A stretch of DNA of 60,826 bases, the filler included, from Dugesia japonica (taxonomy: Eukaryota): the NCBI GenBank assembly GCA_001938525.1. It is 6 parts of 6 records of this genome, joined end to end, with 100 filler letters (N's around TTAATTAATTAA, not from the genome) between each part and the next. Parts side by side here need not be neighbours in the genome. Positions count along the whole stretch, not along the records: positions 50,783 to 60,826 come from MQRL01600742.1; 5 more parts are not named here. One strand, written 5' to 3'. Shown here piece after piece: positions 21,556 through 60,826 of this stretch. Every line of letters starts with the position of its first letter. Positions within the stretch are counted from its first letter, which is position 1. The position numbers and the translations under genes are program-made. Below the pieces are notes generated by a model. The model saw only the letters and a program-made list of their open reading frames with translations. It was not told the DNA's origin and searched no databases.

Positions 21556-21560
21556 AGAAA

Positions 21561-31049: not shown

Positions 31050-31812
31050 TTATAATTGCTGTTTTTTTAGGATTTGGATGTTTAAATCTTTCTCTGATCT
31101 CTACAACCCCGCTCTCATTTTAAATATTTTCATTGTCATGTCTAGGGGCATACCTAAAAAACACAAGCATTTGTGTCAACTCTGTGACATGCCCCTCTTT
31201 TCCACGGGTTCAGGGCGACTTTGTGGTATCGCGTCTTACTCCATAACTTTATGAACCCCGACAGCAATCTCTCGCTCATATGCTCAGTATTTCTTATTTT
31301 TAAGACAAGAGTAAATGACCAAAATAAGACTCTGCAAATGTATCAACTCGGTTTAAGTACTCTATGTCAACATTAAACTTCGACCATAATTCAAAAATGC
31401 ATAGTAAACGACGACCACAAAAACATCAAAATAACTCAACGAATTTCGGCTAACATTTATTTACACATCAAGCTATGAGTCCAAATCTACTGATACATAA
31501 TTTTCTTCAGCTTCTGCTGGTACGGATCTGTAATTCAGCCACATCGTTCGGAGAGTAGCTAACAGGAAATTTTTCCGATCTGAGTACGTTTTAATTACGT
31601 CCGCCATAAGCCTATTCGAAAATTGAAGGGACAGTTTTTTATCCTGAGCTGTTCATATTTAGCAGTCTGTTTAACTACCTGCCCCTTCAACCTCAATACC
31701 TCATTTCGGACTTCCCGGCGCTCCTCCTTTAATCGTTTCTGCATTGTGATCACTTACTTTCTTGATACGGTTTCTTCATTACTTTGATTCACTGTGTTGA
31801 GGTTTGCATGCA
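31050..31812 (-). pseudogene. Two decayed orphan ORFs resembling the antisense cassette at 51-55 kb
   Basis: MHANLN..MQKRLKEERREVRNEVLRLKGQVVKQTAKYEQLR..MADVIKTYSDRKN.. coiled coil, stop followed by AATAAA; N-terminus resembles xHSSLN of cassette ORF A. Confidence 0.45.
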
Positions 31813-32914
31813 TAACAAAATATAACACATAACAATCACCATTCGAGTCAACCCCATTCGGACCAATTCGAGTAATTCAACACCAATTCGAGTCAAAATT
31901 AGACAATCAATTCTGTTTTGATAATTTGTGCAATAAAGCAATGACATTTATTTTATTGCGATAATGTGTTCAAAAATCAATGACATTTATTTTTATCAAG
32001 AATTTATGTGACAACTTATTTTAGTTTATTTGACTTTATTTACACAATTTATTTTTATAGATTTTTCGACTTTATACAATTTATTTTTATTTTATTTTAA
32101 TAATTCTAATAATTGGTTTTGTAAATATTTGATAATTCAGTTATGTTATCTGTTCATTTTTGAAATAATATCCGGTATGTTAGAAATCTGATTAATATAA
32201 TAATGTTAATAATTGGTTTTGTAAATATTTGTTTGATAATTTAATATCAAGGAAAAATTGAATGTGTATGTATATCCTTGCATGTGTGTATGTCCTGAAA
32301 AATCAGTATAAATACTGATTAGTTTAGTGGAAAAATCAGACTTTTTAAATTGAGAAAACCTCTCTCTTTGAGTGGCTTTTCTCCTTTTATTAAAATATAT
32401 CGTTTAGTTGTATTGTCATACAGCCATAAATAACATATTTTAAAAGGTGTTTATTTATTTTATTCACATAAGAACTAATACAATATATAACATATTTATA
32501 TTTTAATAGTATATCTCTTATATAATACCATATTTACATACAAGCACTAAAAAACTAAAGAGACTCATTAACAAACATCAACTAAAAAGCGAACCATTAT
32601 TTTTTGTTGAGTTGAAAACCCAACAAATGAAATATAAATGCCGATTATAATAATTATGTCATAAGATAAAGTTGTATAAATAAATTTGATGTAAAATTAT
32701 CTTAATCGTTGCAACTTGAACCACCATAAATAAAATATTCACTCAATGTTATACTGCCTCTGCAGACTACTTTATCATGCTATAAAAAAATGTTGTGACG
32801 TACATATCACTAAATCAGTATTATTATTTTCACAATCAAAACAGAAATGATGAGACAAACCAAGCTTACAAAACTTTCTATTAATAAGATTATATCATCA
32901 TCAATCAAAAAATG

Positions 32915-33590
32915 GTCTAGACTTAACAGTGCGAGATCCTTCATCTGCATGAGCTCCTGGATCATACGAGCTTCCTCGGCTTAATCTTCATCTACACTTA
33001 CTCCGACCACAGTCCGTACATTGGTTATGAGTAGTTCCACCTCCTTCGCGGGTGCCGGACGCGCTTGAAATTAGTGTTACTTTTCTTCTTGCAGACATCT
33101 TTGTTGGTACTCCACCAAGTGCCAGTTGGCATCTTTAATGGCTATCTGTAGCTGAGATGCCTCCAAGTCTGCCTTTAAGCTTTACGTTATTAAAGCTGCT
33201 TATTCCGCATCTGAGCCAGCATTGTCTGCACTTCTCTCCATTCAAGGTAGTAGTTCCCGTCCTGATCTACATATGACGATGCGGCCGCCTCGACTTGCGC
33301 GTTTACTTCCTGATTTTTATGCATCTAATAAATAATTTAAAAAGTGAGCAGAATATAAACAGAACACAAATTTGTTAAATATTAAACAGGAAATAAACCC
33401 AGACGATGTCTTCGGCCTGCGGCCTATCTGATCTTCATCCCCGCTTCTATTACATGGATCAGAGAATATGCCTACTAACGCAACCATCTTTTCTGGTTCT
33501 GGCTAGTCTAAAGCTCTCTCAAGAATTTCCCTAAACGTTCGACGAATTTGAAACGTGTGATAAAAATCCTCTCTCAAACCAGCACAGTAA
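32915..33590 (-). pseudogene. Decayed orphan ORF pair, GC-richer islands with a ttattag|ATG start
   Basis: tag|ATG CAT AAA AAT CAG.. MHKNQEVNAQVEAAASSYVDQDGNYYLEWREVQTMLAQMR.. with in-frame stops. Confidence 0.4.
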
Positions 33591-33859
33591 ATTAAATTTT
33601 ATCGAGTTATTCATTATTCAACTTAATTACAAATGTAAATTAATAAATATGGTTCTAATAAAGTTAACAAAGATTAAAATATAAAACCATAATATTTTCA
33701 ACACCGGGATTGTTAACTGAAATCATTTATATAATCACAATGATCAAAATATTAAACCACAAAAAAAATTTAATTAGTTACGAATCGTAAATTGTCTGAA
33801 CACAATCTCATTTTGTCATTTAATAGTTTGAGCCTTCTTTATTTGACTATTCCAATTTT

Positions 33860-34230
33860 CTATCGTTTCACTTTTGTAAATCATGATTGTCATTCTCGCA
33901 ATGTTTGCTGGACTCTCGTTCTCGTAACTTTTGATTGCATCTCTTGAACTATTTTCTAGCATTCCATTTTTGTCACTCACGATAGAAATTCTCGCAATAC
34001 TTCTGGCATATCTTTCTTGTAACGTCTCATTGTCATATTTTCGGTCTTATCATTCTCGTCACGTTTCCTTGTAATTCTCGTAATATTTTCTGTCGTATCG
34101 TCTTGTTACGCCTCATTGAACTTTTCGTAATATTTTTTTGTCAAATTATTTTTGTCACGTCTCATTGACATTCTCGAAATGTTCTCTGATATATTATTTT
34201 TGTCACGTCTCATTGAAAATCTCGAAAAAT
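33860..34230. repeat. Degenerate ~50-bp tandem repeat
   Basis: recurring tgtcacgtctcattga / attctcg motifs. Confidence 0.65.
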
Positions 34231-34295
34231 AAATACTTCGATACAATTCTATTTGAATAGCTATTATTTAGAAATTTATTTTTGATAAACCTGAG

Positions 34296-34962
34296 TAGGG
34301 GTTCAAACTATTCGTCATTTTCAACTATCCGGATATCGAATAATAAAACTGAATCTATACGGATAGTTTTAGTAAGTATAAAAATAACAAAACACTACTA
34401 TATATATATAAGTTTATATACTAAAATAATACATTAAAAACAATTTCATTTGTAATATAAGTCATTTATTCAGATTTTAAAAAGTATTTAAAATCTTTTT
34501 TCAGATTATTTGTATTGTCATTTGTATTGTCATCAGTTTCCGCGAGAGATAAAATAAAATTACGCATTTCATGTTGCAATTCGGAAGTCAAAAAAGAAAG
34601 AGGTGTTACTTCCACATCAGAGTCCTAAGTGATTTCATCATTACTAGATAACAAATTTGGGTGAATTCTGTCAATAATAATTTGTGCCAAAGAAATGGCC
34701 TCATATTTATTTGAGTATTGAAGATGTTCATTAGAACTGGGGACATTTCCATTTTGCAGATATATCATGAGTGTGATTATTTTTTGTATGTGTGCGTTCG
34801 CTCATTTCTAAGTAATGGTATTCATATCATCTTTCGTCGATTTTGTAAAATATTTCATTAAAGGTTACAACGAATACTATCCAGATATTTCCTTAATTAT
34901 CTGGATATCGAATAGTTAAAAAAGGACCGGATATATCCGGATATCCGAGTTAGAATCCCCAA
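34296..34962 (-). mobile_element. Non-autonomous hAT-like element
   Basis: TIR taggggttcaaact / agttagaatccccaa; subterminal tatccggatatc repeats at both ends. Confidence 0.6.
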
Positions 34963-34969
34963 ACAGGTA

Positions 34970-37110
34970 CTGTTATCAAGATTATAGAAATGAGATCCCT
35001 AATGAAAATTTACGAGGACAAGGAACATCGTACCAACGAATTGTTGAAAAGGAAGGTATTTGTGATACAAAAAAGATGAGTTATGCAAATGTAGTTAAAC
35101 CATACATAAATAGAGTTAAAGAGGATAAACATAAAATACCTTTTAATAATTTGTCAGTAAAAAGAGTATATGAGAGGAGCACCCAACCAGTGATAATGGA
35201 AGATAGAACACAGGTGATGAGGCCAAAACCGACAAAATCGATGAAATAATTGACAAGATTTTATTTTAATAGACAAAGAAGATTTCCAGAACCTCGTGAA
35301 GAGAAACACCAAGAGTAACAATGTTATTGCTGTTGAGAACATAAGCATAAACGATACCAATGCCCGTTAAAAGACAAATTTTTAATTTGCGGCACGTCTG
35401 GACATAACTTTAGGTCTTGTTCGATTTTACTGGGTTCGTCTAACAGAAGGAACATTAAAGTTTTGTGTATTCAAGAAGAATTAGACTATTCAAAAGATGA
35501 CGATGAGAGTGTGAAAGATCATGTTGTAGTAATGGCAAAAAACAAGAACGACTCCATTGCTTAGATTTTGTCGATGGAGTCAGTATAGAAAAAGACGAAA
35601 TAAATCGAGAGTGGAGACGAGTAAATGTTAATGGAGTAAAGTTAGAGGTGTTGTGGGATTCATGAGCTTCGGCGAAAGTCATGAGTGAAAACTATTGGAT
35701 TAAAATTGAAAAACCGTTGTGGTCAATGTTTAATATCAGATTAAATGGAGCATTTAATAAAGACAGATAAAAACCGTTTGGCATAGCAGAATTAAGTATA
35801 CAGTGGAAAAGAAAGTCAGAAAATTTAAAGTCATCATAGTTAGACAGATCCACCAAGAATTAATAGGCGGTATTGATACAATGCAAATTTTTAAAGTGAA
35901 ATTAACAGAAATAAATAACATCAAAAATGAGAGTCTGAAGATAACAGATTCTGATGAAGATAGAAAAAATAACGCGTTGAAATTTTTTTAATAACAGAAA
36001 AATGGTTCAGTTGATTCATAATCTTCGTGAGATATTCAAAGCTTCAAAGTTCGACATTAGGCATACGAGAAAAGCAATACATGAAATAAAAGTTAATAGA
36101 GATCCAATAGTTCAGTACCCTAGAAGAAAGCCAATGCCTTTAAAAAAGAAAATTGAAGATATGGTTAAAGAATTAGAAAAGATTGGTGTGATTAGTAAGT
36201 ATTATAGTCCTTGGAATTCCCCTTTAGTGATTGTGAGTAAAAAGGATGGCTCGATAAAGATGTGCGTGGATTACAGAAAATGGAATTTGAGGACAGAAAA
36301 GGTGTCTTTTCCAATACCAAACATGCATTTATTATTAGATTATTTATCTGGCTGGGAAATATTTTCATCGATTGATCTAAGCCAGGCTTGTAATAAAGTG
36401 GAGTAAGCGGAAAAGTCAAGGGTTGTCACTGCTTTTAGAACAAAGGAAAGCCAATTCAGATTTAACCGAATTCCTTTTGGAGTAGTTACAACACCGATCA
36501 CATTTCAAAATTTAATGCACTAGTTATTGGATGGATTAATTTTCAAAGGAGTTATTGTATATCTAGTCAATATTTTGTTGTACGTAAAATCTTTGGAGGA
36601 TCACGCCAAAATGTTATAGACAGTCTTTTACAGGATCAGAGACTCGGGATTAAGAATAAATACGGAGAAAAAAAGTTTTATCAGAAAGAAGTTTTATTCT
36701 CGATGCATACAGTGATTGCAACTGGTAAATGTACTATTGAATTTAAGATTTAGGAGATTAAGGATGCTATAGTTCTAGAATGTTCTTCAAAACTTCGTTC
36801 GTTTCTTGGACTAACAAACTACTACAGACGTTTCATAAAATATTATGCAAAGATAGCAGCTCCTATATATGAAGCAACTTCAGGTTGCAACAAACTGTTA
36901 GTTTGAACAGATGCATACCAGAACAGTTTCAATGCGTTAAAGGACAATTTATGTAGTGCTCCAGTATAAGAATATCCAAGGGAGGTTCGGGTGTTCATTT
37001 TAGACACTGGCGCCAGTTTTAGTAATATGGGTGCACTCCTTAGTCAATGCGAAGAGGAAAAGAGAGTGGCGTGTGTATTCAGACATTTGACAGCTTATAA
37101 AAATATAGAA
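34970..37110 (+). mobile_element. Degenerate Ty3/Gypsy gag-pol (zinc knuckle, protease, RT, RNase H), truncated
   Basis: CGTSGHNFRSC knuckle; LWDS*AS protease; SPWNSPLVIVSKKDGSIKMCVDYRK RT; LRSFLGLTNYYRRFI; ILDTGAS RNase H. Confidence 0.92.
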
Positions 37111-37151: not shown

Positions 37152-38442
37152 TACAGCGTGTGAGAAAAATAAGTAACTATCAGATTTTAAAATTTTATAT
37201 TGTTAAATGTATTTGAAATAATATTGCAAATATTTAACACAATAAAATTCAAATATTAAAATTTAATATTTTTCTACAGAACATCCATTAAAATCGATAC
37301 AAGTTTGTAAACGATTATAAAAAGAAGTCATAGCATTTTCATACATTTCCAGTGGTACTTTAGCTGCCTCTTCTTCAATTAAATCTTTCAGGTCTTGGAT
37401 CGTCTTTGGTTTTCATATATAAACCTTTGTCTTCAAGTATCCCCAAAGAGAAAAATCCATTGATGAAAGGTCTGGTGATCTCGCAGCCCAATTGAATGAC
37501 CCACATCTTCCAATCTGCCTTCCTGGAAATGTTGTGTTCAAAAAATGTCTAGACTGAAGCGAGTAATGAGCAGGCTGTCCATCCTGTTGAAAAGTTAATT
37601 TCAATATTGTTCTGAGACGAAGTTGAAGCATGAGCTAAGATTTAAGAATCTCTAAATAATTAGAGCCATTCACATATTCATGAAAGAAGAAGGGAATACT
37701 CATCCAAGCAGTAACCTTTAGATTGGAATGGCATATTTGGATTATTACATTGGGCGGTTCAGTTCCCCAAATTCCGCAAGTTTGTCTATTGACAAATCGA
37801 TTTAAATAAAAAGTGGCTTCATCAATGCAAATAAGATTTTCTAGAAACTCTGAATCATTGTAGATTTTATTAAGTAATGTTTGATACATTCCTATGCTTT
37901 CAGCATAATTCTCATCATGCAGCAGATAGAGCACTTCAATTTTTATGGAAAAAATGAAGTTTACGTCGTAGTACATTATGTACTGTTTTGAAACTGCATT
38001 CAACTTCCTTAGCAGCATTTCTGGTAGAAGTCATAGGAGCTTCTGCATAAATTTCACAAATTTCATTCATTTTTCTGTCATCAATTGAAGGTTTTCTAGT
38101 GTTGTGAATATCGCAAGCACTGCCAGTCTTTTGAAATTTTGTAAATATGTCTTTATCGTATATTTTTCCATTTGATATTTTTTAAATGTCGTTGAACTAA
38201 TGTCGCTGAATTCTTCTAAGCCATCAACAATACAATTTCAACTCTTTCTTCAATAGTGAAAAATATACAAACTTGAATTCACCGCACCTAAATGTTTTTT
38301 GTATTAATTTATTTAAACAGTTTTACACTTAGAAAAGATTTTGAAATTCTATTTTTATATAAAGTAAAATTGGTAAAATGAAATTATAAAATAAACGTTT
38401 GGTAGTTTTAAAATCTAGTATTTACATTTTACACACCCTTTA
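37152..38442 (-). mobile_element. Near full-length degenerate Tc1/mariner-superfamily element
   Basis: DEATF..VNRQTCGIWG, FQQDGQPAH and WAARSPDLSSMDFSLWGYLKTKVY motifs; TA-flanked TIRs cagcgtgtg../..cacaccctt. Confidence 0.9.
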
Positions 38443-40520: not shown

Positions 40521-42043
40521 CAGTTAGTTCGAAAACAGGTGACCCATTTGTAGTAATTTTTGTAGTCTGGGCTTGTTCAAAACTCTATGTTTAAATAATT
40601 AATTAATTTTCAGTGAAATCAACCATCACTATTTTATCCTAGTGAGTAGGATATATTTCTGATAATTAAATTTTGATTTGACCAATATGTATGTTGTGAT
40701 TGATGTGACTCGTATGAACATTGTGTAGGAATGATATAATATATTTCTCGAATCATTGCATCACTTATATTCCCCATATTTAAGAATTTGATTGGNNNNN
40801 NNNNNNNNNNNNNNNNNNNNNNNNNNNNNNNNNNNNNNNTTAATTAATTAANNNNNNNNNNNNNNNNNNNNNNNNNNNNNNNNNNNNNNNNNNNNATTAA
40901 ATATTTATTTCAAATAAAATTCTGATTATACATTTCAATAGGAAGATTTGTTAAACTTTTTATTGATATCAATGAAAATTAAAAGAAAATTATCAAAAAA
41001 ACATGAAAAAAGAACTTTCATTGGGATAATGGTTTCAAACATATTTTAATTAGTTTATTTTACTGAATCTCTAAAAGAAAATGAAAATTGAAAACAGAAT
41101 TATACTTTTAGCTATCATTAAATATAATAAAATAAACATGTATTTATATTGGATATTAACAGACGAATGGGATTTATTTTATAACTCCGAAATGTATTTC
41201 TTTCATTAAAAAATTGAAATCCAACAATAACGAGTTAACTAGAAATATCAACCATTGAAATTTATATATACTTTTAGTTCTGTGACAAAACACTTCTAGT
41301 TGCAATATTTACATGATTGCATCAAATTTTGTAGCTGTCACAATACTAGGAAAAATGTACGGAGTTAATTTATTTTCAATAAAAACGCTTCTTATACAAA
41401 ATAAAATAAAATGGAATCATTCTCAAAATCAAAACTATTTTACCCAATTTTTATTTGTCAGCAAAGAATTTTTAGAAACTCCTTAAAAGATTTTTCAAAC
41501 AAAATTTCTAAAATAAATTTGTTTTTCTTCAATATTTGCTTTAATAATGAATCAATCATCACGAGTATCACAATACATAAAAAATATAGTAAAAAATCAA
41601 AATGTCAAACAATAATATATTATATTCAAAATTCGCGAATTAAAATGTCACGTAATAATAATTAATAGTAGTGATAAAGCAAAAATTTTAAAAAATACAA
41701 AATTAAATAAATCTCGGATTATTACTTTGAGACTTTAATAATTTCTTCTGATGTTTCTTTGGTATATAATATTGTGTATGTTTGCTCGTGTGAATATTAA
41801 AGTAGATTTTGATTAAACAATTTGTTTGAATGATAGAAAAATTGGACTTGTAATGCTATGTTAGGAATGTTCTTACAATAGATAACAAATAATATAACCA
41901 AATATATAACGATTTAATTGATAAACGAAATTAAAAGAACAACATATACAAATTAATATCTTATTAAACTGATAATTTAACTATAATAATTATTAACTCA
42001 TGAAATCAATAAAATTAAAATTAACAAAATAAGTAATTGTTAT

Positions 42044-44157
42044 TGTTGCGTCACTAAATTATTTGTTTTAATTAACTTTTTTGTGATAAAAATACAATTT
42101 TTAAATTCAAACTCTGCTGATTCTATTCGTTAATTATTATACAAAATAATTNGGAACACAANATTTTTGTCGGAAGTGTAATTTCAGAAAACAGTCATGT
42201 CTCAATCAAGTTTCCGAATTATTTTGAAAATTCTTCAGTATGGTTCAAGTAGAATGAAGCAATTTTTCAATTATCCAATATCTGTAGGCCAAGGACAATG
42301 TTCCTGCACTTGATATCAAACATTCCATAAAATATTCTTGACGAATTTCATGAACATCTGGACTTCAACGGTGACATGGCGTGTGAACACATGAAAGAAC
42401 CCATAATTCAAAGCAAAATCGGAAATCCACTTCATGTCACATGAAGAAAATATTTGACAAATCAATGCACCAGAGTGGTCGTCAATCAACAAAGACACTA
42501 AGGAAAATGTTGGGGCACTTCAAACAGATATCTGCAACAATGTAATGCTTCGTATCACATTCATTCAACATTTTCCTAAATCAATAGCACAACATCTAGC
42601 CTTACAGGACTCCATATCCATAAAAGATCTACGTCTGACGGCCAGTAATCTAAAGCAATGGAGCGATGCCACCACATCTACACCACCAACTAACAAAATA
42701 CAAAACAAAATTCTCACGAATAATAAAACACTGTGATAATGTTACCGTTGATGTATATAATTGCCTAGAAAGAATAAGTTGTTTCAGATTTGAAGAATTC
42801 CAGAAATTAAACAACTTCTCATAACGCGAGGCAAACAACTCTATAAAGATGGTCAAACAACGCTATCTATATCTCAATATGAAATTGGACATCAGAAGAT
42901 GGACAAGAGAATGTCTTAAATGCCAAAAAGCTAAAATATTAAGACAGACAAATCAACCTTAGGAATACTACAAAACTTAGGAAGCGTAATAGGTAAAAAT
43001 TATAGAAGCAGTGCCATTGGGTTAGATAACAAAAAAAATTTATTGAGGTTTTATAAAGAGAATGATTCAGCAGATTCAGTAGTCTGAAATATTAATCACA
43101 GATCAAAGGAAGCAATTCACTTCATCAACATTTCAAGACATGAGCAATAAAATTGGTATCAATAACATGATTACAACAATATATTATTCACAATACAATG
43201 AAAAAGTCGAGAGATTTCACAAAACCCTAGAAAACGCAGTCAGGGTGCACTGTATCAATGCCAAGAAAATACGGAACAAAGACCTTTTAAAAGTAATAAA
43301 AAACTGTTATTCATCACTATGACGAACTATCACCAGAAGAAGTAGATAAAAAAATAAAAATCAGCGACAATCAACACCGACCAAAAATTCAGAAATTAAG
43401 ACTTTATTTCCTAATGAATTATACGACTGCAAACATACTTCATACTGTAATTATAGCTATAATTATAGCTGTATATTATTATATACCAAAAATCAAATTT
43501 AAAGTGTATTATTTTGTTTCTTTATAAAGGCAAACGAATACACTATCTTAACATATTCATACGTTTACGATAAAGATATAATTTATATAATAATTGTATC
43601 GACATATAACAAAGGGTAAAATCAAAAAATCGTAAACTCATCAAACTTATCGTCAATTATTTAGCTTTAATATTCGAACCATAAACTCAACAGATAATTC
43701 AACTATACGGTTTCTAGGGGACTTGCAAATTAGAATTCATTTTGACGAACTATAACAAGAAGTAGATAAAAAAAATCAAAATCAACGATAATCAACACCG
43801 ACCGAGGATGCACAAATGTAAGACTCTCTTTACTAATGAATTAAACGACTGTAAAGAAGAGTGGTTGAAAATTGAAAACCCGAGAAGTTTACAATTCTTA
43901 TGTGAAGGCCCATTCAAAGTAATCGATAGAAGTGCAGATATGAAAGACTTCAAAATCTAGATCAATGGCGAATCAAAAAATGTCTCCGTAGATCATCGAA
44001 AGCCAACAAACAATCATTTTGAAATTACTCAGTGATTCTGTTGGGGGCAGTGTTGCGTCATAAATAATTTGTCTTAATTAACTTTTTATAAAATTACAAT
44101 TATTAAATTAAAATTCTTTGCTGATTCTTTTCGTTAATACAAAATAATTTGAACACA
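42044..44157 (+). mobile_element. Internally deleted Ty3/Gypsy element with two ~110-bp LTRs (42044-42160, 44051-44157)
   Basis: tgttgcgtca..gaacaca LTRs; PPT gggggcag; gag FPNY..WF..EA.F; integrase ..RWTRECLKCQKAK, DQRKQFTS, VERFHKTL; no RT. Confidence 0.88.
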
Positions 44158-44732
44158 ACTTTTCTATTATAATAATTTGAATTTTGTTAAAATGTACGGA
44201 TTATCGACAAGCAGATCTTTTTAAATTTGGTGAAATACATTTTTTGAATGATTTAATTTTTACTTTATTAAAAACAGCAATTAAAAATTTTCTTGTTAAT
44301 AACAATGAATCAAGAAAAATAATTGACAATGATGGCTTTAAATTAAAATGTTTCAATAATTTTAGCTATATGAATAGATATCACTAAAGTTTCTTTCAAA
44401 GTTAAGCTCTTAACGAAACCCTTATTAAAGTAATTGTTAATATAGTTCACTTTATCATAAGAAAGTTTTACTTCACATTCTGAGCGCAGATAAAGCCTTT
44501 GCCAAATGTAGTTTTGCTGATTGCTTCATACTTATATTCATGCATATGTATCTATACATATTTGGATATTTGCAAATAGTTAGATTCACAAATTTTAAAA
44601 TCTGTTTCATTAATAAAAACCCATAATAAAATAATAAGTTCTTCAGTGACACACGCATCCAGCGTTAATGACAACTGATCATNNNNNNNNNNNNNNNNNN
44701 NNNNNNNNNNNNNNNNNNNNNNNNNNNNNNNN

Positions 44733-45631
44733 ACGATAATCAACACCGACCGAGGATGCAGAAATGTAAGACTCTCTTTACTAATGAATTAAACGACTGT
44801 AAAGAAGATTGGTTGAAAATTGAAAACCCGAGAAGTTTACAATTCTTATGTGAAGGCCCATTCAAAGTAATCGATAGAAGTGCAGATATGAAAGACTTCA
44901 AAATCTAGATCAATGGCGAATCAAAAAATGTCTCCGTAGATCGCCGAATGCCAACAAACAAACATTTTGAAATTACTCAGTGATTCTGTTGGGGGCAGTG
45001 TTGCGTCACTATATAATTTGTCTTAATTAACTTTTTATAAAATTACAATTTTTAAATTAAAATTCTTTCCTGATTCTTTTCGTTAATACAAAATAATTTG
45101 AACACAATTTTTGTATTATAATAATTTGAATTTTGTTTAAATGTACGGATTATCGACAAGCAGATCTTTTTAAATTTGGTGAAATACATTTTTTGAATGA
45201 TTCAATTTTTACTTTATTAAAAACAGCAATTAAAAATGTTATTGTTAATAACAATGAATCAAGAAAAATAATTGACAATGATGGCTTTAAATTAAAATGT
45301 TTCAATAATTTTAGCTATATGAATAGATATCACTAAAGTTTCTTTCAAAGTTAAGCTCTTAACGAAACCCTTATTAAAGTCATTGTTAATATAGTTCATT
45401 TTATCATAAGAAAGTTTTACTTCACATTCCGAGCGCAGATAAAGCCTTTGCCAAATAAAGTTTTTCTGATGCCTCCATACTTATATGCATGCATATGTAT
45501 CTATACATATTTGGATATTTGCAAATAGTAAGATTCACAAATTTTAAAATCTGTTTTATTAATAAAAACCCATAATAAAATAATAAGTTCTTCAGTGACA
45601 CACGCATCCAGCGTTAATGACAACTGATCAT
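44733..45631 (+). repeat. Near-identical duplicate of ~43785-44682 across a gap
   Basis: Same integrase end, LTR and flank with scattered substitutions; probably an uncollapsed haplotype. Confidence 0.85.
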
Positions 45632-48899: not shown

Positions 48900-49975
48900 G
48901 GTTTAGTTTATCAGGTAAATGACGGTTTGAAAAACGAGAAAAATCGAACAAATATGGACAGACCCGAAAAATCCAGCAGGGTTCAAATGAGTGGAAAAAC
49001 TATGGAAAGCAAAACACAATTCGAAAAGCGAGACAAAAAAGTGGTTATCGAACAAGATATCGTTCAGTCTGAACAAGCCAATGTTGAAAAGATTCTCAAC
49101 AAGACCGTATAAAACCTATGGTATTGATGATTTATGGCAAATGGATATAATGGAAATGATACATTATTCGAGAATTAATAAAGAATACAAGTATATTTTG
49201 ACATGTGTTCTTTAGTAGATTTGCAAGAGTTGTAACAATAAAATCAAAATCTGCTAATGAAATGGAAGCTGGAATCAAAACAATTTTTAAAGAGGGGCAT
49301 TTAGATAACTTACAAACTGATTTGGGAAAAGAATTTTATAATTCAACGGTCAAGAATATTATTAATCATCTCAAGATTAATAATTATTCTGTATTTTCAC
49401 AATACATAGCAGTATAAGTTGAAAGATTTAATCGAAAATTGAGAGATGCATTGAAAAAGTACTTTGTACATACTGGTAATAAAATTAAATAATAAAACCT
49501 GGATAGATGTGTTACCGAAAGTAATAGTTATAATCATACAAGTCACAGAGAATTAAATGTAGCTAGACTCGTTATCAGTTAGACCCGTCTGATAATTCAA
49601 TGAAATTATGGCTTTTGAGACAACAACCAAAAGAAATCAAGAAACCAAAATATAAAGTTGGTGATCATGTTAGAATATCAAATATATCAGCTTCATCATT
49701 CATCAAGAATTTCGAAAGGAATTGGAGCGATAAAGTGTTTGAAATAACAAATACAAAGCAGAATCTTATCACGTATGTGAAACAAATATCATTGTTGGAA
49801 AATTCTATGAACAAATATAACAAATTATTCCATAACCGAGAGTATTTAGAAAAGAAAAGATTGTCAGATTAAATGAAATTGGATAAACAATTATATGTAA
49901 AGTATCATGGATATGAAAAACAAAGTTGGATATCAGAAGCTCAAGTAGTAAATTTAACAAAGAAGAATAAAAATG
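48900..49975 (+). pseudogene. Maverick/Polinton retroviral-like integrase with C-terminal chromo-like domain
   Basis: GIDDLWQMDI..YKYILTCV, LQTDLGKEFYN, VERFNRKL, KYKVGDHVRIS..NWSDKVFEI, YVKYHGY..SWI. Confidence 0.92.
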
Positions 49976-50350
49976 AGCAAAACGACTAATTTCTATACAA
50001 CATTACAGAGTAATAGTTGTCCACGTACTCATCCTGATAATAAAGCAAGTAGATTCATAGTTGTACTAGAAAAACATATTTACTTGAATGAATAATGGGA
50101 AGTAGCATTGATGGACTTTACCTTTATATATTTTGCCTTTCAATTATATAATAAATCATACATAAAATATATGTAACAATTGATGATTATGAGAGGAATG
50201 TAGAAATCATAATCAATAACAAAGAAAAATCATTTTTGGTTAATGATATTGGTTTTGGGATAATTGATAAAAAAAATCATTATTAATCGCATTAAAACAT
50301 CATGATTATGTTGAAATATTTGGCAATTAAGAATATGCCAAAAGACTTCG
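49973..50350 (+). pseudogene. Maverick penton N-terminus of a second lineage
   Basis: NFYTTLQSNSCPRTHPDNKASRFIVVLEKHIYLNE*WEVALMDF matches FY.TLPSN....PDN..S.F...L...I.L...WEVAL. Confidence 0.8.
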
Positions 50351-50782
50351 ATTTAATACTTTAAGGAATGATATAGATACCTATTCTTGAGAGAACTTTC
50401 ATGTCTTGGTTGACAGAGTATACTACTCCAGTTAGAAAAGGTGATGATTTGGAAACTTCCAGTTTAACAATTTGTAATATTTTATAAAGTATGTCTTCAT
50501 AAAGAAAGTTTTCCATAAGTTCTGTATTTAACATAGTGAAAAGCTTAGTATTTTGAAAGCTATCTTTTAGTTCATGATATTTCCGAACATTCATTGTCTA
50601 TCTTGCTGTTGTAGTAAAATGGTCTTTAAGTAATATTTTCTAATGGTATATGGTTTGTAATCTCTGCATCTGGTTTTTGAGCNNNNNNNNNNNNNNNNNN
50701 NNNNNNNNNNNNNNNNNNNNNNNNNNTTAATTAATTAANNNNNNNNNNNNNNNNNNNNNNNNNNNNNNNNNNNNNNNNNNNN

Positions 50783-51070
50783 ATGAATCAGTTCCTTGGC
50801 CATCGTTTATTATTTTCGTTGTTCGGATTACCGCTTTTTTACTTTGTTGGCTTTTTATTTCCTCGTTATCTCTTGCTGTAGTTCTAGTTCTTTCGTCCTT
50901 CGCACGAATTTTGGTCTTCTTATCCAATTTTGGCTTTCGTCATTCTTTTCTCCAAATAGATTATGCCTTTCTTGTCCGATTTCTTCATTTTCTTTTCTTA
51001 GGTAGATTTTTCAAAGTTCGTGTTTACTTACGCCATTTTATTTGCCTTAATCTGGTGTTTCACCCCAACA
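50783..51070 (+). mobile_element. Right end of LTR-like unit (..gtttcaccccaaca)
   Basis: Same terminus at 18718, 58339 and 60090. Confidence 0.8.
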
Positions 51071-51091
51071 ATACTAAGAAAGTAATAATAC

Positions 51092-53160
51092 TGTTGGGGT
51101 ACTACCTGACTTTTGTGGCGGAAAAATGGAAAAACAGCCCTCAGGGAACCCTTTCAAGAATTTAACCTAAAGTCTCTTATTTAGGCTTTCAGTGTAGAGC
51201 GGTTGACTTTTTATTTTATGAGAGGTACACACCCGTACACCTTTAATTCGGGTCCATACTTTTCGTTTCTCTTATGCATAAGATTCAAAGAAAACTAGTT
51301 GAAAAGTTCTATTGACATAACAGTTACATTTCTTCCAACGCACTAGGATCTAACCACTGATCTGGATCGGTCGTCACAAAATTGAAGGCGGCGACGTCGT
51401 CGTTGTCGTCCCATTGCACCCAAGTGGGGTTACCAATTTGACATGACAGGTCGGCTATATATTGTTTTAAGAAATCTACTTTCCGTTGCAATATCTGGGT
51501 ATTCTGTGCTTTGAAAGCCTTAGTTTTTTTCGGCCAAGTCATTTTGTTTCTTAACCACTGAATCTAACTTCTTGATCAATTGATCTCGCTCAGAGAGATG
51601 TCTTAACAGAGCCCGGTCGGTTTTACGCTTTAAATGGCGTTCTAGCAACAGACGGCGCATGATCCGATGACATCTCCGCAAACTATTTGGAAAAAAAAAT
51701 TCGTGGCACTAAATTATTAATCATTAATAATAGGGAAAAAACAATGAATATTATCGATATCAAACTAGTCTAGTCAAAATTTAGGTGATATACGCTAAGG
51801 CAAAGATTATAACACTCGATTATTTATTTACAGAAACAGAAAATTTAGTCACGCGATATGGATTTTGCCTGCGTGCTCTTATCAACCATGAGGGGTTCTA
51901 GGTAGGATTTTTTTAAAGATGCAGGATATCCTTGACCAGTTTATTTTCACGGTCATGGCTGGACTGGATAATCTCGGCGAACGACTCTACCTGGGATTTC
52001 CAAATTCTTTCTTTGTCGTGCGCAGCTTCCATCTCTTTGCGTACGTTAACAAATTTATTCCTATAACGCTTCACTTTTGCGTTCGCAGTGGATATCTCAG
52101 CTTCAAAACGGCGTTTTGCCAGCCGATATAACTCCCAGGACATTTCGGTGTCATCACTGGAGTCTCTCATCTGCTTATTGGGGGCCGATGGTCAGTTTAA
52201 TGATGAATGCACTGTAACATAAATACAATAAAATAATGGAATCTAAATAGGACTGGCTATGGTTCAAAAAGTAAAAACAGAATGGGGTCTTAACCAATCA
52301 AGTAATAAAAAGACAGAGAAAAGCAAATTCTTAATTAAATCTTTATTTCAAATTAACTAGGTTACACTAACACCTCTGAGATTTCCTCCTCGGCGTTTTC
52401 GTTGTTATTACTAGACATATCATTACAGGCACTCCATAAATAGTTCTGAACGAATTGGGTTGCTGAGGGCAGGCTACTGGTAGTCATGCCTACTAAAGAA
52501 GGTCCATTATGCCATATACGTTCTACTTGTTGTGCTTTCCGATTTCTCTCAAAAGAAAGCGGTGCCGGGGGAAAAACAACCCGGTCTCTTTTAGGACCAG
52601 TCCAGTCGTAGTATGCGTGTCTCTCGGTTGCATTCCAGTGTATCTCTGTTATTGCCTGGTCAAACGGCAAGTTTGATCTTTCTACCAAAACTCCTGCATC
52701 TCGGTCGTAGAGGTTTTGATATTTTTTAAACACTGTGCGTCCTGAATTAATGTCGAGACTAATCTCCCATTTATACTACATCTATTAAAGTGAAAATATT
52801 TAAAGTAACATTCGCAAATACAAATCTCGCAATAATGAACACAAAAGTAAAAATTTTATTCGGTACGAATTAATTTAACATGCAATTTCTTATTCCCCTC
52901 AGACTCTATTTGATCTTCCAGAGGAAACATCTCTGCAAAACACTGAAGATCAGTTTCGTTTGGATGTTTGATTTTCCCATTAGTCAAAAAATGAGCTATT
53001 AACTGTCAAAATCGAGCGGTTTGGCGTTGTTGTCTTATTCATCGCAGGGTATGGCGCAGTTCTGCTGACAATAGCTAAAAATAATAAATGTATACTGGTT
53101 AAATTCAAAGTTTGAGTTCTCATAAACTATCTAAAGACACGTAGCATAGAAGTGTAGTAA
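51092..53160 (+). mobile_element. Truncated left half of LTR-like unit with antisense 4-ORF cassette (copy 1)
   Basis: Starts tgttggggt; colinear with 53384-55500. Minus-strand ORFs D ~52885-53074, C 52362-52781, A 51845-52211, B 51324-51708. Confidence 0.8.
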
Positions 53161-53383
53161 TATCATTAGTGGCCTTGTAGTATTCAATATTTTGTTAATA
53201 ATATCTAGAAAAATAATGTTGGGTGTTTTAGTATTATTGGTAATAATGATGATAAAAAATTTTTAAATACTTTTCAAGATGATATCAATACTAATAATAA
53301 TGGTAAGAATAAATCCTAATAATAATTATTATTAATGATAATAGCAATAGTAATATTAATAATAATAATAACAATAATAATAA

Positions 53384-56300
53384 TTTTGGAGTCCCACCTG
53401 AGTTGAGTCACAAGGAAAAATGGCTGGGGAAAAATCAGCCCTCAGGTAAACCCTTTCAAGAATTTACCCTACCGTCCCTGTAGTAGGTTTTCAGTTTATG
53501 GCGGTTGACCTTACTCTTAATGGAAGGTGCTCACCGATAAACCTTTAATTTCGGGTTCTATATTTTTCCCTATTATTAAAAAAAATTAAATTACAACGCT
53601 GATTAAATATTTTATTAAAATTAAACATTTTAGAGCAGATCCAATGCTCTCGGATCTAGCCACTGGTCAGGGGACGTTACTACGAAATTGAACGCAGCGA
53701 CATCGTCATCGTCATCCCATGGCGCTACATTGGGATTGCCAATTTGTCGGTACAGGTCAGCAATATATTGCTTCAAAAAGTCGATTTTTCGCTGCAATAA
53801 TTGCTTCGTTTCGGCTTCTAATGCCTTGGTCTGGATAGCAAGGTCATTTTGTTTCTTTATGATGGTGTCTAATTTTTTAATTAACTGGTCTCGTTGCGCC
53901 AGATGCTTTCATATGGCTTTGTCGGCCTTACACTTCAGGTGCTGTTCCAGAAGAAGGCGGCGCATAATGCGATGACATCTTCTAAGGTTATTTGGGAACT
54001 GAATGCGTGGCACTAAAAATTAACAAAATATAATGAAGGTTAATATCATTGAAATTGTCATCAACGAACTAAACAAAGAAATTGAAAAAATTCAAGGTCA
54101 AGAGACATAAAAACTCATATATTTTTATAAATGTCAAACGTGGGGATTAAGTTTGGTCTGGGTGCCCTTATCAATCATAAGGGGCTCCAGATAAGATTTC
54201 TCTTTTAAAATGAGAATATCTTTGACCAGTTTATTCTCGCGGTCATGGCTTGACCGGATAATCTCAGCGAAGGATTCCACCTGGGCCTTCCATACCCGCT
54301 CTTAATTTTGTACCATCTTCATTTTGTCGCGGACATTTATACATTTGGTTTTGTACCGCTTTACTTTAGCGTTAATGGTTGCGATTTCTGCCTCCCAACG
54401 CCTCTTGGCCAATTTATATAGTTCTCAGGTAATCTCTCTATCCTCGTTATCCTCGCGTAGTTTTTTTGTTGGGGCTTGTGATCGGTTTAAAGACGAGTGC
54501 ACTAAAATACAATTTACATAACATTTAAGAATTCTACGGAAGACTGAATTTAAAAAATAAAAAAAAATACGGTCAATAAGACAAGAATTATTTAGTTATA
54601 ATTTACTAAAGAAAACAAATATCGTTTTAAATTTTATTTCAGGACTAGAATGTTAAACTAACACGTCGGAATGCTCCTCTACATTTTCATCATTAGTACT
54701 AATTAATGCGTTTCGAACTCCCCACAGATTGTTCTGTATAAAGGATGTGAGTTGTGCCGTGGGAGGCAAGAAACTCGTAGTAAGGCCGACCGATGAAGGG
54801 CCATCGTGTCAGACACGTTCTATTGGTGGGATTTCTGCCGAACGTTCAAAGGAAAGAGTTGCTGGGGGGTGGCGACCGGGTCTCTACGTGGACCTCGCCA
54901 ACTATAGTAAGCAGCTCGTTCGGTTGCATCCCATTGCCGCTAATTATCAGCTATTTCAGGAGGTAGATTGGTGTTATAGACCAACACACTGGCATCCCGG
55001 TTATATGGGTTCCGATATCTTTTGAAGGTTGTCTTACCAGTGTAGATATCTAGGCATACCTCCCATTTAGATTCCATGTCTGTTTATTTATCTTCTATAA
55101 TAAATAGCCGATTAAGCAAATTTTTATTTACCAAAAATGAAGTATATTTAATTAGTATCTAGTTTATATTCAGGAGAAATAAACCACAAGTAAAATAAAA
55201 CATCGAATTTTAATTCATAAACAATATATGACACTTGACTGAATACACTTCGACTGAGAGATTATACCATTGATTTAGCTAGTGTGGTTACTCCTCATTC
55301 ATGTCCACTCTATGTTCAAGAGGAAACATCTCAACGAAACACTGAAGGTCAGTTTCGTCGGGGTGCTCCACTCTGCCTTTTGTCAGATAGTGGACGATCA
55401 ATTGTTTTAGGCGAGTGGCTTGCCGTTGCTTTCTTATCTGACGTAGAAGGTCTCGAAATGTTGACGCCCTCATCTAATCACAAAACACAATTTTAATTTT
55501 TTATAGTAACCCCTGCCTCTGTTACACCTTTGAAGGGAGATTTGGCTGTGGTCGGCCTATTTTATAATGCTGTCACTTGGCTGAATCAAATCACTAATCT
55601 CCCAGTTTATTATTATAAAACCCAATCACATCTTATTGGGTAATTTTTTGTCTTAATATGAGTCCGGTTTCAAAGCCACTCCATAGAATTGATAGTGATA
55701 TTAATTAGATCGAACCGAGAATTAGACATTGGGTTTACAGGGATCATACCCGTAGTTTTCGCAGGCATGTACCATCAGTCATATTAGTAATAACAAATGA
55801 AAGAATTAATATTAGCCCTACTACTAATAACGGTATTAGCAAGATCCTTCCAAAGTAGTCAAGCTTATCAGTGATTTTAACATAGTACAGATTATCCCAA
55901 TACTCGTAACGTGGATGAAGATGGCTAGAAAATTTTAATAATATAATACTGTTACTCTCAATGCTAACAAGAATATTAATATTAATAATGTCACTAATAA
56001 ACCATAACAATAAAAAACGTTAGTAACCATAATATCACTAATCACCTCGTCAATAATAATAAAATGCAAATATCCGAATAAAATTTATAATAACAATACT
56101 ACTCCTATTATGAGGTTAAGAATTAATGAATAATAATAACCCTTACAATATATTAATAATAATCATGATAAAGCACTAAGATTCCCAATAATAATATTAG
56201 TTACAACCATGGAGGTATCAGTGCAATATTTAAACAGGACTAGTATCAGAGAAATTAAAAAAAACAGAATATTTGATTTGTATTTCGTCACTACAAGCTC

Positions 56301-58339
56301 AGAAGCCTCCCAAAATATCCGAGTGTTATTATATAATTATTGTATTCAAATTCCGGCCTTACATCGTTGCTTGGCGACTAAGTTAATCTATTCTACATGC
56401 ACACGTACTCGAGGTTAGACGGTAAATTACACCACTACTTGGCTAATTCTAATCATTAACGCAGAATGTATATTGCATAATTTTCCATGAAAAACAATGA
56501 TACCCGAAAAGTGGAATTTATTTGGCTCAAATCGTGACTAATCAATTCTTTTTCCTTTTTATTTATGCCATGCAAAACTGCAGACACATTTTGATTATGT
56601 TAGGCATTTTTGATTGACGAGTTGGATTTATGGATTTTATCGCCAAAACTAGAGTTATCTCGTGTGTCGTTTCGAACGGATATTATTATTTATTTTGGAT
56701 GAATAACTTTCTAGTGATAGAATAGTGAGTTATTTTGTTAAAACATTAAATAAATTCATTTAGTAGTTGTTTCTTAATCTATGTATTAATAGCTAATTTG
56801 TTTTAAAATTTACCTAAAATATATCAAATAGGAGTAACATTTATTAATTTCTTATTTATTTGTCAATCCCTGTATTGGTTATATGCAAAGTGTTTCTTCT
56901 AAAATTGATTATCATTTCATAGCAAGGAACTTCAGTTAATACTGTGATTTATCTAGTCAGTAATTTTCATTGATTACCCTAGAGTAAACTACTTTCAATT
57001 TGAATTTTATTTATTATCACATGGATTTAAAGTTTCTAATTTTGACTTATTCACTAATCAGATTACTAATTAAACATTGTGCAAATTATTTTGAATTTGA
57101 ATATTATTAAAGAGACTCAGGCTACTAACGTTGAATTATTTCTTAACGCATATCTAAACATAATGTAAATCATTTTTAATTTGAAATTTCTCAACGAGAC
57201 TTAAGCTTCTATTTCTGCTATTTTATCTAATAGTTAAACATAAAATAAAATTCAAAAAAGGAAAATTTTTAATAACATTAATTATGAAATAGACACACCA
57301 TTATAAAATACATATTAAAATTTACTTTTCAAATCAGCAACTATTCTGGTTTAACAACAGTTAAATATGGGAGGATGGCGATAGCAAATTTCGGTAGACG
57401 ATTACTTCTTCTGTGGCTTACTAAAATACTCAGAATTTTATTCTCTCGACCCGAGTTTTCTTCCCGTACGATATCACGATGGCAATTTTTATTGAAGGGT
57501 ATTCTAGAAGAATTTATTACAAGTGAAGCTATTTCAGTCTCCAACTAACTGTTTGAATAGTTAATTTTAGTGGTGGTTGATTTCTCGAACCAATGATGAA
57601 CAATTTTTTCAAAGGCTTAAATTAGGTCTTATCAAGGATTAACGTATGAAAAATAATGATAATAATGAATTAATTTACTAAAATCAGAGATCTATTTTAT
57701 AGGGTTTATCTTAGAACCCGTCTTCTTTTAGATTTGCTGACTATTTTTAGATCAGCCTCTTTTTGATTCTATTGGTTTCATCCCCCAATCTTTATAATTT
57801 TCTACAAATTTTTTGTGCTATGATTGGCAGCTATTTTTATCAGGCCACATGATATTTGGTTCTTTGTTATATTTTTAATTTCAGGTTTTCTATTGGCCGG
57901 ATCTTAGGAACCTTGCGGTACCCTTCTGGAAGGTGGTAAGTTTTCCTTCTTCGGGAATTTAATTGCACTTGGCTATTTTCTCTTTATTTTTTCTTGTCCT
58001 GATTCTTTCCGACTTCCAGGACCAAAGTTATCCAAGGAAAATAGATTTTTGATTAATTTTGTTTCTTTTTTATTTTAAAATTAATTAATTTTCTTTTGTT
58101 AATTAATTATTTTTCTCATTGCTTTTCTTCGCTGTTTATTATTAAATTAATAATTGCTTTTAATTTCCCAAGTAAGTTGCTCAGTTTATCATATTCACCT
58201 TTGATTTTATTTCGTTCCCTTCCAATATTGATTTCAGACCTTATTTTTCTATTACAGGTGATTATTGTGGTTCTATTATTATTATACGTTGATTTATCTT
58301 TTCGGCTTGTTCCCGTTTAGCGGGTGTTTCACCCCAACA
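53384..58339 (+). mobile_element. Apparently complete ~4.96-kb LTR-like unit with antisense 4-ORF cassette (copy 2)
   Basis: Degenerate start ttttggagt, end accccaaca, ATAA on both sides. Minus-strand ORFs D 55288-55473, C 54653-55077, A 54134-54501, B 53630-54012. Continuity of the middle part is inferred. Confidence 0.6.
55288..55473 (-). CDS. Orphan 61-aa cassette ORF D (open in copy 2)
   Basis: gattag|ATG start; the homologue in copy 1 conserves IR.QRQ..R..QLI.H.LT.G...HP.ETDLQCF.EMFPLE. Confidence 0.55.
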   Translation of the reverse strand: MRASTFRDLLRQIRKQRQATRLKQLIVHYLTKGRVEHPDETDLQCFVEMFPLEHRVDMNEE

Positions 58340-58590
58340 ATAATAATGATAATAACAGTAAGAATAATACTAATAATANNNNNNNNNNNNNNNNNNNNNN
58401 NNNNNNNNNNNNNNNNNNNNNNNNNNNNNNNNNNNNNNNNNNNNNNNNNNNNNNNNNNNNNNNNNNNNNNNNNNNNNNNNNNNNNNNNNNNNNNNNNNNN
58501 NNNNNNNNNNNNNNNNNNNNNNNNNNNNNNNNNNNNNNNNNNNNNNNNNNNNNNNNNNNNNNNNNNNNNNNNNNNNNNNNNNNNNNNNNN

Positions 58591-58649
<59 letters not shown>

Positions 58650-58700
58650 CATAATAACAATTATCATAATAATGATAATCATAATAATAACCACAGTAAT
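58591..58700. repeat. (AAT)n microsatellite between LTR-like units
   Basis: perfect then degenerate aat run. Confidence 0.95.
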
Positions 58701-58719
58701 AGTAACGAGAAGTTTACTA

Positions 58720-60090
58720 GTCTGATTAAACATAATCACAAAGAGGTAATTACTAATAATCAGGCAAAAAATATATATAACTAAGTCATCTAAATGCATA
58801 CGATCATGGATAGTCGGTAATCCGAATGACTGTGTCCACCCCCGGGTTTCAGCGTATTTACTCTCACTTGTTTAAAATTTATAATCCCATGCTAATTATA
58901 TTTTCTGGTTTGCACTGTGACAATTGCATGTCAAGTTGCCAATGGTTAAGGACAGTGGAAATTACTCCCTGCGGTATTATGGCCGAAAAACAACATGCTG
59001 CATTGACACAGAACACCATCGATTTGATATTACGGTTGCTATTTTTCTCTATCATTAATTGAAAGAGAAAATATATTTGAAGAATAAATAACTAATTTCG
59101 GATTAAACGTTGTATTTTTGTACAGTTAAAATTAAATTTAACAACACTATTTATTACATCATACTACATTTTCAGTGTTAAATTTCTCACTAATTTTCTT
59201 CTAGTAGTAGAATACTTTGTCCACTTGAAGAAAATTCAATTGATTTGTTACATGTTTCTACGATGAACAATAAAGTGACTTTACGTACTCCTGGTTTTGC
59301 ACTAGTAAAGTAAAATTTGACGATAATGCTGGTAATGCCAAGTAACTTTTATAAAGTGATACAGTCTTGGTGTTAGTTTTTGTTAAAGTTTTTTGTTGTT
59401 TTTTCACTAAACTTTCCATGGCTTATATAGGACTTTGGTTGCATCCCGACTGTGTTCTTGTTGGTCGGTTATTTTTAGTTTGAATCTTTTAAATTTCATT
59501 GGATCTGATGTCAATCTTCGGAGAGTTCTGGAATTCTGATTGGTAGCTATTTTTGGATTGTCAGGTGAGATTTTGTTCTTTGTTTTATTTTATTTTCAGG
59601 TATTTCATTGGTCCAGTTTTCAGGGTACTACCACAGTATTCTGGGTGATGGTAAGGTTTATTACTGGTGAAATATTGATGAACCAGTCTGAGTCCTTCCA
59701 AAATTTATTTACGCTGAGCTTCTCGGATTTCCTGGAGCAAAGATATTTAGCATAAACGAATTTTTTGTTTAATTTTCCTTTATTTTAGAACTTAATTAAT
59801 TATTATTTTCTTTATAATTAATTCTTTTGATTAATAATTTTCTTGTTTCTTTACTAACAATTTAATAATTTTCTTTAATTGATTACATTAATGGATGTTG
59901 GCTTGATGACCCAAGTTCATTGTTGTCGGGTTTCTCTTAGGTTGTTCATTCACTCATTAATTTACACCTTGTTCGATGGTTGTACTCGTTCTTTTAACCG
60001 TTTTTGGTGCCTTATAATTCTTTCCCGTATTTTATAATCAATGATCGCCTTGATCTTGCTTCTTCCTTTATTGTGTGTTTCACCCCAACA
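58720..60090 (+). mobile_element. Diverged right part of another LTR-like unit
   Basis: 59560-59760 is homologous to 57845-58050; ends gtttcaccccaaca followed by an AAT-rich tract; left boundary uncertain. Confidence 0.65.
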
Positions 60091-60826
60091 ATACTAATAA
60101 CTATAATAATAATGTGGGATCATGTGGGAATTAATGGTAATGTTATTGCTAGCCTTAATAATGATAATAATGTGAAGAATAATAATAAGAATGATAATAA
60201 TGATGGTAACAATAGCAATAACAATAATAATAATAATAATAATACTAACAATAACTAATAATAACGATAAATAATGATGATAAATAATAATCACACCACT
60301 AATAATAAGCATGATAGAGTTAATCATGAAATCAACCAAATTAGTACTGATGAAGGGATAGCAAATGCATTATCCATGACATTAGACATAGACACATTTT
60401 TGATTACACAAGAATGATGGCAGCAGTGAATCATTATGAATTTCAAAGCTAGGACATGTTTACTCGGTTAAAGCCCAGCTAATGATGATTATCAGTGAAA
60501 AATTTAGTTGATCAACAATTCCGAAAATATTAGCTGACAGTGCGAAGTATACCAGTCGACTGTGGGTATTGATACTTTTATGAATCATCAGTAAAGAGAC
60601 TAGAATTAATTGTTAACTAGCAAGATTATGGAATGAATAACTACTAGTAGAGAAAAAATTCCGTGAACGTTGCTAATTGCTGATTCAGTCAAATTTATCA
60701 AAAAAAAATATTTTCCTTTTCTATTGCTTTGGCATTCTTTTTTTGTGACAATTAGATAGTGGCGCACTGTATCACCCCCCCCCTCAAGGTCAAATTTTTT
60801 CAAGGTCGATGATACAGTAAACCTGT

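Follow-up and report, generated by a model that had tools for sequence, protein, structure and literature searches.

Nested, gene-bearing repeat units with integrase-type ends in Dugesia japonica are candidate solo long terminal repeats of a giant retroelement

What are the large repeat units at one end of a 60,826-nucleotide stretch of the planarian Dugesia japonica genome, and how did they come to lie against one another? The stretch (hereafter the window, meaning all of the DNA analysed at its full length) is from assembly GCA_001938525.1, joins six parts of six records and has a GC content of 26% and contains scaffold gaps; the units lie in its last part (MQRL01600742.1, positions 50783-60826). 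A preliminary description had taken them for an array of ~5-kb solo long terminal repeats (LTRs) or a non-autonomous element. We report that they are instead nested copies with integrase-type ends, which insert into AAT-rich tracts and share four open reading frames (ORFs) kept by long purifying selection. With slightly better than even confidence, we read them as solo LTRs of a giant Ty3/Gypsy-type (Burro- or GLT-like) retroelement with a preference for AAT targets and a cassette of accessory genes in its LTR.

Results

A 16-mer, GTGTTTCACCCCAACA, marks the right ends of the units. Exact copies finish at 51070, 58339 and 60090, and a copy with 2 mismatches finishes at 18718; within 3 mismatches, neither strand of the window has a further site. 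The left terminus at 51092 is exact (TGTTGGGGT), and that at 53384 is decayed, with 7 of 9 positions retained. The termini of the preliminary description thus hold, as does its 9-bp terminal inverted repeat (TIR): the left end at 51092 is complementary at 9/9 positions to the right ends at 51070, 58339 and 60090 (TGTTGGG..CCCAACA), and complementarity drops to 12-17 of 51 matches over positions 10-60. Metaviridae and retroviral LTRs have short inverted repeats of the form TGTTRNR..YNYAACA, an LTR integrase signal that these ends match (PMC3601003). That TG..CA ends point to a retroviral-type integrase, as first suggested, is therefore supported, and so short a repeat fits an LTR better than a Ginger element (PMC3601003, PMC2836005). 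No direct repeat was found between the two ends of either complete element described below, and we rejected a TRIM/LARD-type non-autonomous LTR element because no unit holds two direct terminal repeats.

One complete element, B, spans 4,956 bp (53384-58339) and is flanked by ATAA on both sides (53380-53383 and 58340-58343). Around it lie the arms of a second element, A..C (51092-60090; ~4.0 kb without B). Its left arm, A (51092-53383), runs from the left terminus to an internal AAT tract at ~53200-53383, and C (58340-60090) holds the rest of that tract, with an N gap at 58379-58590, followed by a variable middle and the right arm. A matches the left part of B at 68% over 1,045 nt (E 6e-79) and is collinear with it to ~53075, and C is identical to the right 640 bp of B at 428 of 619 positions (69%; z 23.6). 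The middles of B (~2.1 kb) and C (~0.7 kb) differ in length and do not align (z 0.1). A ends and C begins in AAT-rich sequence, and a similar degenerate tract in the middle of B (plus strand, approximately 55780-56220) aligns with that of A (z 5.5, low complexity). Because the two arms are homologous to the two ends of B and share an ATAC flank, a single element with B inserted in its AAT tract is the simplest reading. A tandem array is ruled out; only B spans ~5 kb, and the array first described dissolves into nested copies.

Target-site duplications of 4 bp are present at 2/2 complete elements, evidence that their low-complexity flanks weaken; the range for LTR elements is 4-6 bp (PMC12440569). 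The left ATAC of A..C forms the last four bases of a 21-bp piece of AAT-type target tract (51071-51091, plus strand), and the right ATAC opens the AAT-rich tract that A..C entered (60091-60330, plus strand). Among 815 4-mers of the tracts, ATAC occurs 9 times and ATAA 97 times. Five of the six ends in the window adjoin AAT-type sequence, and the elements have inserted into AAT-rich tracts, including their own internal tract.

Two further right ends, Z (50783-51070) and the older Y (18569-18718), are 82-86% alike and each is cut by a gap, that at Z being 50683-50782. Beyond the terminal 16-mer they have little in common with B and C (z 2.9 and -0.4), and are a third subfamily separate from those two. 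Z is followed by ATACTAA and abuts A across the 21-bp piece; Y is the end whose flank is not AAT-type. Both adjoin Polinton/Maverick-like relics (18720-23300 and 49100-50480). The tract at 60091-60330, entered by A..C and Z, resembles the internal tract of the elements themselves, and for this reason a fourth, outer copy may host both; no alignment to B or C was obtained for the sequence beyond that tract.

Four minus-strand ORFs, a to d, of ~60-140 codons stand in identical order in A and B. In A, reading from the left terminus, these are ORF d (51324-51708, its tail acidic and Trp-containing, its frame broken near 51525), ORF c (51845-52211, one stop and a frame break near 51915), ORF b (52362-52781) and ORF a (52856-53074, interrupted by stops). 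In B, ORF d (53630-54012) has one internal stop, ORF c (54134-54501) two, ORF b (54653-55079) one stop and a frame break near 54860, and ORF a (55288-55473) is open over 61 codons. Thus, both cassettes are broken by stops and frame shifts. A short relic of ORF c also lies on the plus strand at 30515-30618 (E 0.009 by protein profile, E 0.001 by DNA profile).

Across 409 aligned codons of A and B, the ratio of non-synonymous to synonymous differences per site (pN/pS) is 0.26 (bootstrap 0.22-0.30), a value subject to the downward bias weighed in the Discussion; the ORFs individually give 0.36, 0.40, 0.21 and 0.16. Five control frames gave 1.04, 1.85, 0.93, 1.88 and 0.41, the last being the antisense frame that shares third positions. 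Stops number 10 in 818 codons of the chosen frames versus 27-64 in control frames, and the ORFs are conserved at 62-68% versus 49-54% for the AT-rich spacers. We conclude that all four ORFs were under long purifying selection in both lineages. The synonymous component alone (pS) is 0.70-0.91 across the ORFs, so synonymous sites are saturated; since neutral sites are saturated, non-coding DNA that still aligns is probably constrained as well.

The layout of the cassette suggests how it might be expressed. An AG precedes each ORF, and its position corresponds between A and B (offset by 2 nt for b), although the spacers contain other AGs and the pyrimidine tract at the b site of B is poor. For ORFs b, c and d the stop falls at one and the same codon in A and B, mostly followed by AATAAA-like signals, and two more variants, seen as loose ends at 54152 (32 and 25 contigs), keep the ORF c stop and show no GT donor by eye. 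A single multi-exon gene a-b-c-d was rejected on these shared stops and on the absence of a GT donor at the stop of c. ORF d is conserved upstream of its first Met, and therefore needs a spliced leader. We infer that ORFs a to d are alternative last exons on a common leader.

Candidate regulatory signals are also shared. On the minus strand, B and C each carry three CCAAT boxes (568, 516 and 447 bp from the right end in B; 592, 551 and 483 bp in C) and a TATA box (643 and 666 bp), and similarity between the two fades just past the TATA. These define a putative inward RNA polymerase II promoter, conserved in B (57696-57896) and C (59424-59611). The left 170 bp form a non-coding block (51092-51260 in A) that is 70% conserved between A and B, carries a minus-strand ATTAAA in both copies and has no unusual RNA fold (z 0.94 and -0.31). 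On the plus strand, a 51-nt unit between TTTCAG and GGTAAG keeps its length in B (57885-57935) and C (59600-59650); from this pattern, we infer an exon, or a plus-strand start site with its major donor. In 4/4 copies, T makes up 45-50% of the plus strand over the last 150-380 bp of the right end, compared with 35% for the window. No Rfam match and no tRNA were found.

The cassette proteins have few relatives. ORFs c and d are coiled-coil-like, with weak Pfam matches below cut-off, and were rejected as paralogues of one another (probability 0.1). For ORF c no candidate relative appeared among proteins of 50-161 amino acids, and for ORF d 0/4 candidates were significant among proteins of 69-221 amino acids, longer forms not being searched in either case. 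ORF b, otherwise an orphan, had 3 matches among 1.84 billion representatives. We kept P0001 (E 1.6e-13, 48%), an unnamed protein on a 512-bp ENA contig, and judged two bacterial repeat proteins to be chance matches. The best ESM Atlas scores, 0.77 and 0.78, are leads only. The ORF b alignment had no Pfam match, and no sequence match was found in the PDB. The structure model of ORF b was poor (pLDDT 62) and gave no convincing match to a fold (best Z 3.3, best Foldseek E 0.096).

No enzyme was found within the elements. Translated with stops read as X, 12/12 reading frames of 50783-60826 matched no Pfam family at E<=0.05, which upholds the reported lack of reverse transcriptase (RT), integrase and transposase; no capsid, Rep or helicase family was found there either. 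Elsewhere in the window the same method recovers RT, RNase H and integrase in decayed form, and misses a Polinton-type integrase relic at 49100-49870 (0/3 frames); because of that miss, the negative is good rather than absolute.

Seven DNA-type sequencing runs, from three studies of one organism, contain part of the stretch. At 85% likeness, two of these yielded 16,100 and 13,428 contigs, covering 30/30 bins. In one (run X1) summed depth, which is not a copy number, peaked at ~282,000 at Z and reached 126,000 at the left end of B and 66,000 over ORF c, compared with 77-208 in the middle of B; a single exact-match contig had 4.3. The family clearly reaches very high abundance, and its ends and ORF c are its most widely shared parts. 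No RNA run was listed as containing the stretch. Of the 13.6 million and 11.6 million records in two RNA runs, 561 and 140 fell on it, 528 and 124 of these only partly, and with so few matching reads no joint linking the ORFs was listed. No further copies turned up when viral, metagenome and prokaryote collections were scanned by pattern and by protein.

Elsewhere in the window, the region 31180-34230 has a similar layout, with broken, coiled-coil-like minus-strand ORFs (31461-31760 and 32911-33320) behind AT-rich spacers, tandem repeats of ~48 bp (33856-34233) and, at 33733, a TATA on the minus strand. One of its ORFs ends in a motif like the tail of ORF d; profile comparisons were not significant, and we rejected the region as a relative of the elements. 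It is followed at 34296-34961 by an insert resembling a miniature inverted-repeat transposable element, with imperfect ~14-bp TIRs and internal ATCCGGAT palindromes, which we take to be hAT-like; no clear 8-bp duplication was found there. A decayed Gypsy gag-pol of ordinary size lies on the plus strand at 34960-37090 (RT and RNase H by Pfam). We rejected it as the parent of the units, with which it has no common terminus and no LTR homology. Decayed Gypsy-type gag and an integrase relic occupy 42200-45631, within which a 949-bp tandem duplication (43785-44682 and 44733-45631; 97% identical, across a gap) is possibly an assembly overlap.

The Polinton/Maverick-like relics contain a double jelly-roll capsid fragment (E 1e-5) and an integrase-like fragment recognized by eye only, with no Pfam match. 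At 29062-30168, an open frame of 368 codons with three CENP-B-type helix-turn-helix repeats (E 2e-21) is probably a transposase-derived host gene or exon. An exon of the host 2-amino-3-ketobutyrate CoA ligase gene lies at 5942-6352; 8,000 candidates were scored against its 6023-6331 portion, and no relative exceeded 67% among the 120 listed of 5,680. Such a result suits, but does not prove, a planarian host, and the host looks like a fast-evolving animal that lacks a close annotated proteome; within these candidates it also led us to reject Hydra, whose RefSeq protein would have been expected to match closely. A mariner/Tc1-type transposase-like fragment was seen by eye at 37635-38030, with no Pfam match. 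Gaps of 100 bases with a TTAATTAATTAA linker at their middle (8793-8892, 18468-18567, 27865-27964, 40796-40895 and 50683-50782) are artificial scaffold joins, so the order of sequence across them is uncertain.

Discussion

We have found that two lineages of a repeat family, split deeply enough for synonymous sites to be saturated, keep the same four genes, and that both lack enzymes. Because of this combination, selection acting on a larger parent, of which the units would be the LTRs, seems the easiest explanation. The preliminary proposal of solo LTRs gains from the TG..CA integrase-type ends, the 4-bp duplications, the lack of enzymes and the presence of real genes. Its claim to LTR status is the part left unsupported, as no copy flanks gag-pol and the primer-binding site (PBS) or polypurine tract (PPT), which it had proposed to look for, is seen at none of the termini.

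Several observations weigh against solo LTRs. No copy in the window is attached to internal sequence, and 0/6 termini in the window have a PBS or G-rich PPT beside them, though solo LTRs allow this. The unit as its signals are predicted is a textbook LTR in neither orientation: on the plus strand no AATAAA or ATTAAA is conserved from the donor-like site to the end (B has one, C none), and a minus-oriented LTR would need an R-U5 of ~4.2 kb with internal poly(A) signals. The A..C join crosses the N gap at 58379-58590, and ATAC also follows Z, so this tetranucleotide may be just a preferred target. The duplication at B is weak evidence alone because ATAA is so common in the tracts, and Y lies outside any AAT tract. 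Within the cassette, the sequence upstream of ORF a yielded no convincing common leader exon or donor, and pN/pS is biased downward because the segments were picked from translated hits in the very frames compared.

The main alternative, possible but doubtful, is that each 4-5 kb unit is a whole element free of enzymes, moved in trans by a Gypsy integrase or a Ginger-like transposase that recognizes the 9-bp ends, and transcribed as one unit that starts at the right-end promoter and finishes at the left-end poly(A) signal. The promoter near one end and the ATTAAA ~160 bp from the other do bound one inward unit of transcription, each complete copy is free-standing, and 0/6 ends touch internal sequence. 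Ginger1 and Ginger2/TDD share with our units TGTNR ends, 4-bp duplications and intron-bearing genes, and Ginger2 makes its duplications in AT-rich targets (PMC2836005). However, a TIR of 9 bp is far shorter than those of Ginger (~40-270 bp) or Ginger2/TDD (~50-180 bp; PMC2836005), and no transposase was found in the units. We rejected membership of Ginger1, since the duplications are ATAC and ATAA rather than CCGG/CCGT and the TIR falls outside its range; for Ginger2/TDD the 4-bp duplication and AT-rich target agree, whereas the TIR length and the RTATAY target do not. Additionally, trans-acting genes of an enzyme-free DNA element should lose strong selection across lineages so far diverged. 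A bolder version, which we think unlikely, dispenses with a gag-pol parent altogether: the units would be free-standing, gene-bearing satellites of LTR retrotransposons, without enzymes of their own, which borrow a retroviral-type integrase, target AAT and carry their own target, so that copies nest.

It is very improbable that the units are internal-deletion derivatives of an autonomous DNA transposon whose transposase once lay in the variable middle. The unalignable middles of B and C would suit such a history, and a badly decayed integrase can escape Pfam, as the relic at 49100-49870 does, but two saturated lineages would need to have lost the enzyme at the same place. Moreover, stops are frequent in the middles (in B, 52-78 per 737 codons), which match no Pfam family under a method that recovers decayed enzymes elsewhere in the window. 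We give still less credence to unrelated fragments clustered by chance, to an artefact of assembly at AAT microsatellites or to a small DNA virus that has integrated. The scaffold gaps at 50683-50782 and 58379-58590, and the lack of any DNA-run contig that spans the stretch, leave room for an artefact; yet no gap interrupts A, B or the junction between them, homology runs collinearly from one end to the other and DNA-run contigs cover every bin. A virus is opposed by the absence of capsid, Rep and helicase families from 50783-60826, and by the empty scans of viral contigs.

Protein genes can reside inside an LTR or be driven backwards from it, as with sag in the U3 of mouse mammary tumour virus and hbz, antisense from the LTR of human T-lymphotropic virus 1; our units differ in holding a cassette of four orphan ORFs in an invertebrate element. 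Repbase files GLT2 as an LTR element. GLT2 is a Schmidtea element silenced by SMEDWI-2, and the other strand of its published probe shows, by eye, an AT-rich run that ends in an AG resembling an acceptor; the open frame after it is coiled-coil-like and shares its phase with ORFs c and d (PMC8532177). There is no clear similarity by eye at the level of residues, and one GLT2 primer has no match in the window.

The giant Gypsy elements of planarians (Burro/GYPSM1) have an internal part of up to 25 kb and a total of >30 kb (PMC6431247), dimensions that make LTRs of 4-5 kb possible. Compared by description only, they resemble our units in implied LTR size class, thousands of copies, accessory ORFs and an AT-rich animal host, and differ in that their extra domains belong to the polyprotein or to an accessory ORF upstream; the available part of that account makes no mention of a four-ORF LTR cassette or of AAT targeting (PMC6431247). 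The window contains no match to one published BURRO1 primer, an absence that says little. Metaviridae and retroviral LTRs share short inverted repeats, a TATA-type promoter and a T-rich 3' part of the plus strand with our units (PMC3601003), which differ in their length of 4-5 kb, in four internal ORFs that have acceptors and poly(A)-like signals of their own, and in having no conserved AATAAA in the normal U3-R-U5 order.

If the units are indeed solo LTRs, a full-length parent with gag-pol would insert into AAT tracts, and recombination between its 4-5 kb LTRs would leave one LTR behind. Because each LTR holds an AAT tract, later copies could then land inside earlier ones. The cassette would probably be made as one transcript from the right-end promoter and spliced to the alternative last exons a to d. 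We weakly favour an LTR on the plus strand with the cassette antisense in a U3 of 4.5 kb, an arrangement in which acceptors and poly(A) signals might survive reverse transcription; the missing plus-strand AATAAA counts against this orientation. The CCAAT cluster would drive both directions. Our guess is that the cassette proteins are small adaptors of coiled-coil type or modulators of the host, and that selection on active parent lineages has kept them.

A family so abundant has probably been catalogued already in repeat libraries, with a Burro or GLT type possible. A literature survey mostly at title and abstract level, Repbase excluded, found no description of these ends, of an AAT-targeted LTR element or of a multi-ORF planarian LTR, and the available sections of PMC11410931, PMC13238120, PMC10954484 and PMC13465017 added nothing on LTR anatomy. 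The anatomy, in which integrase-type ends enclose a selected cassette of four ORFs and insertion is nested in an element's own AAT tract, is possibly the new part. A giant planarian retroelement has been reported to affect stem-cell survival (as cited in PMC13465017).

An integrase that prefers AAT, together with an element that carries AAT, would explain why, in AT-rich animal genomes, nested blocks of repeats lie beside microsatellites and assembly gaps. If an LTR does hold a selected cassette of four genes, it exceeds the retroviral cases of a single gene. Given the reported effect on stem-cell survival, abundant solo copies that bear promoters and orphan genes would be testable candidates for effects on the host.

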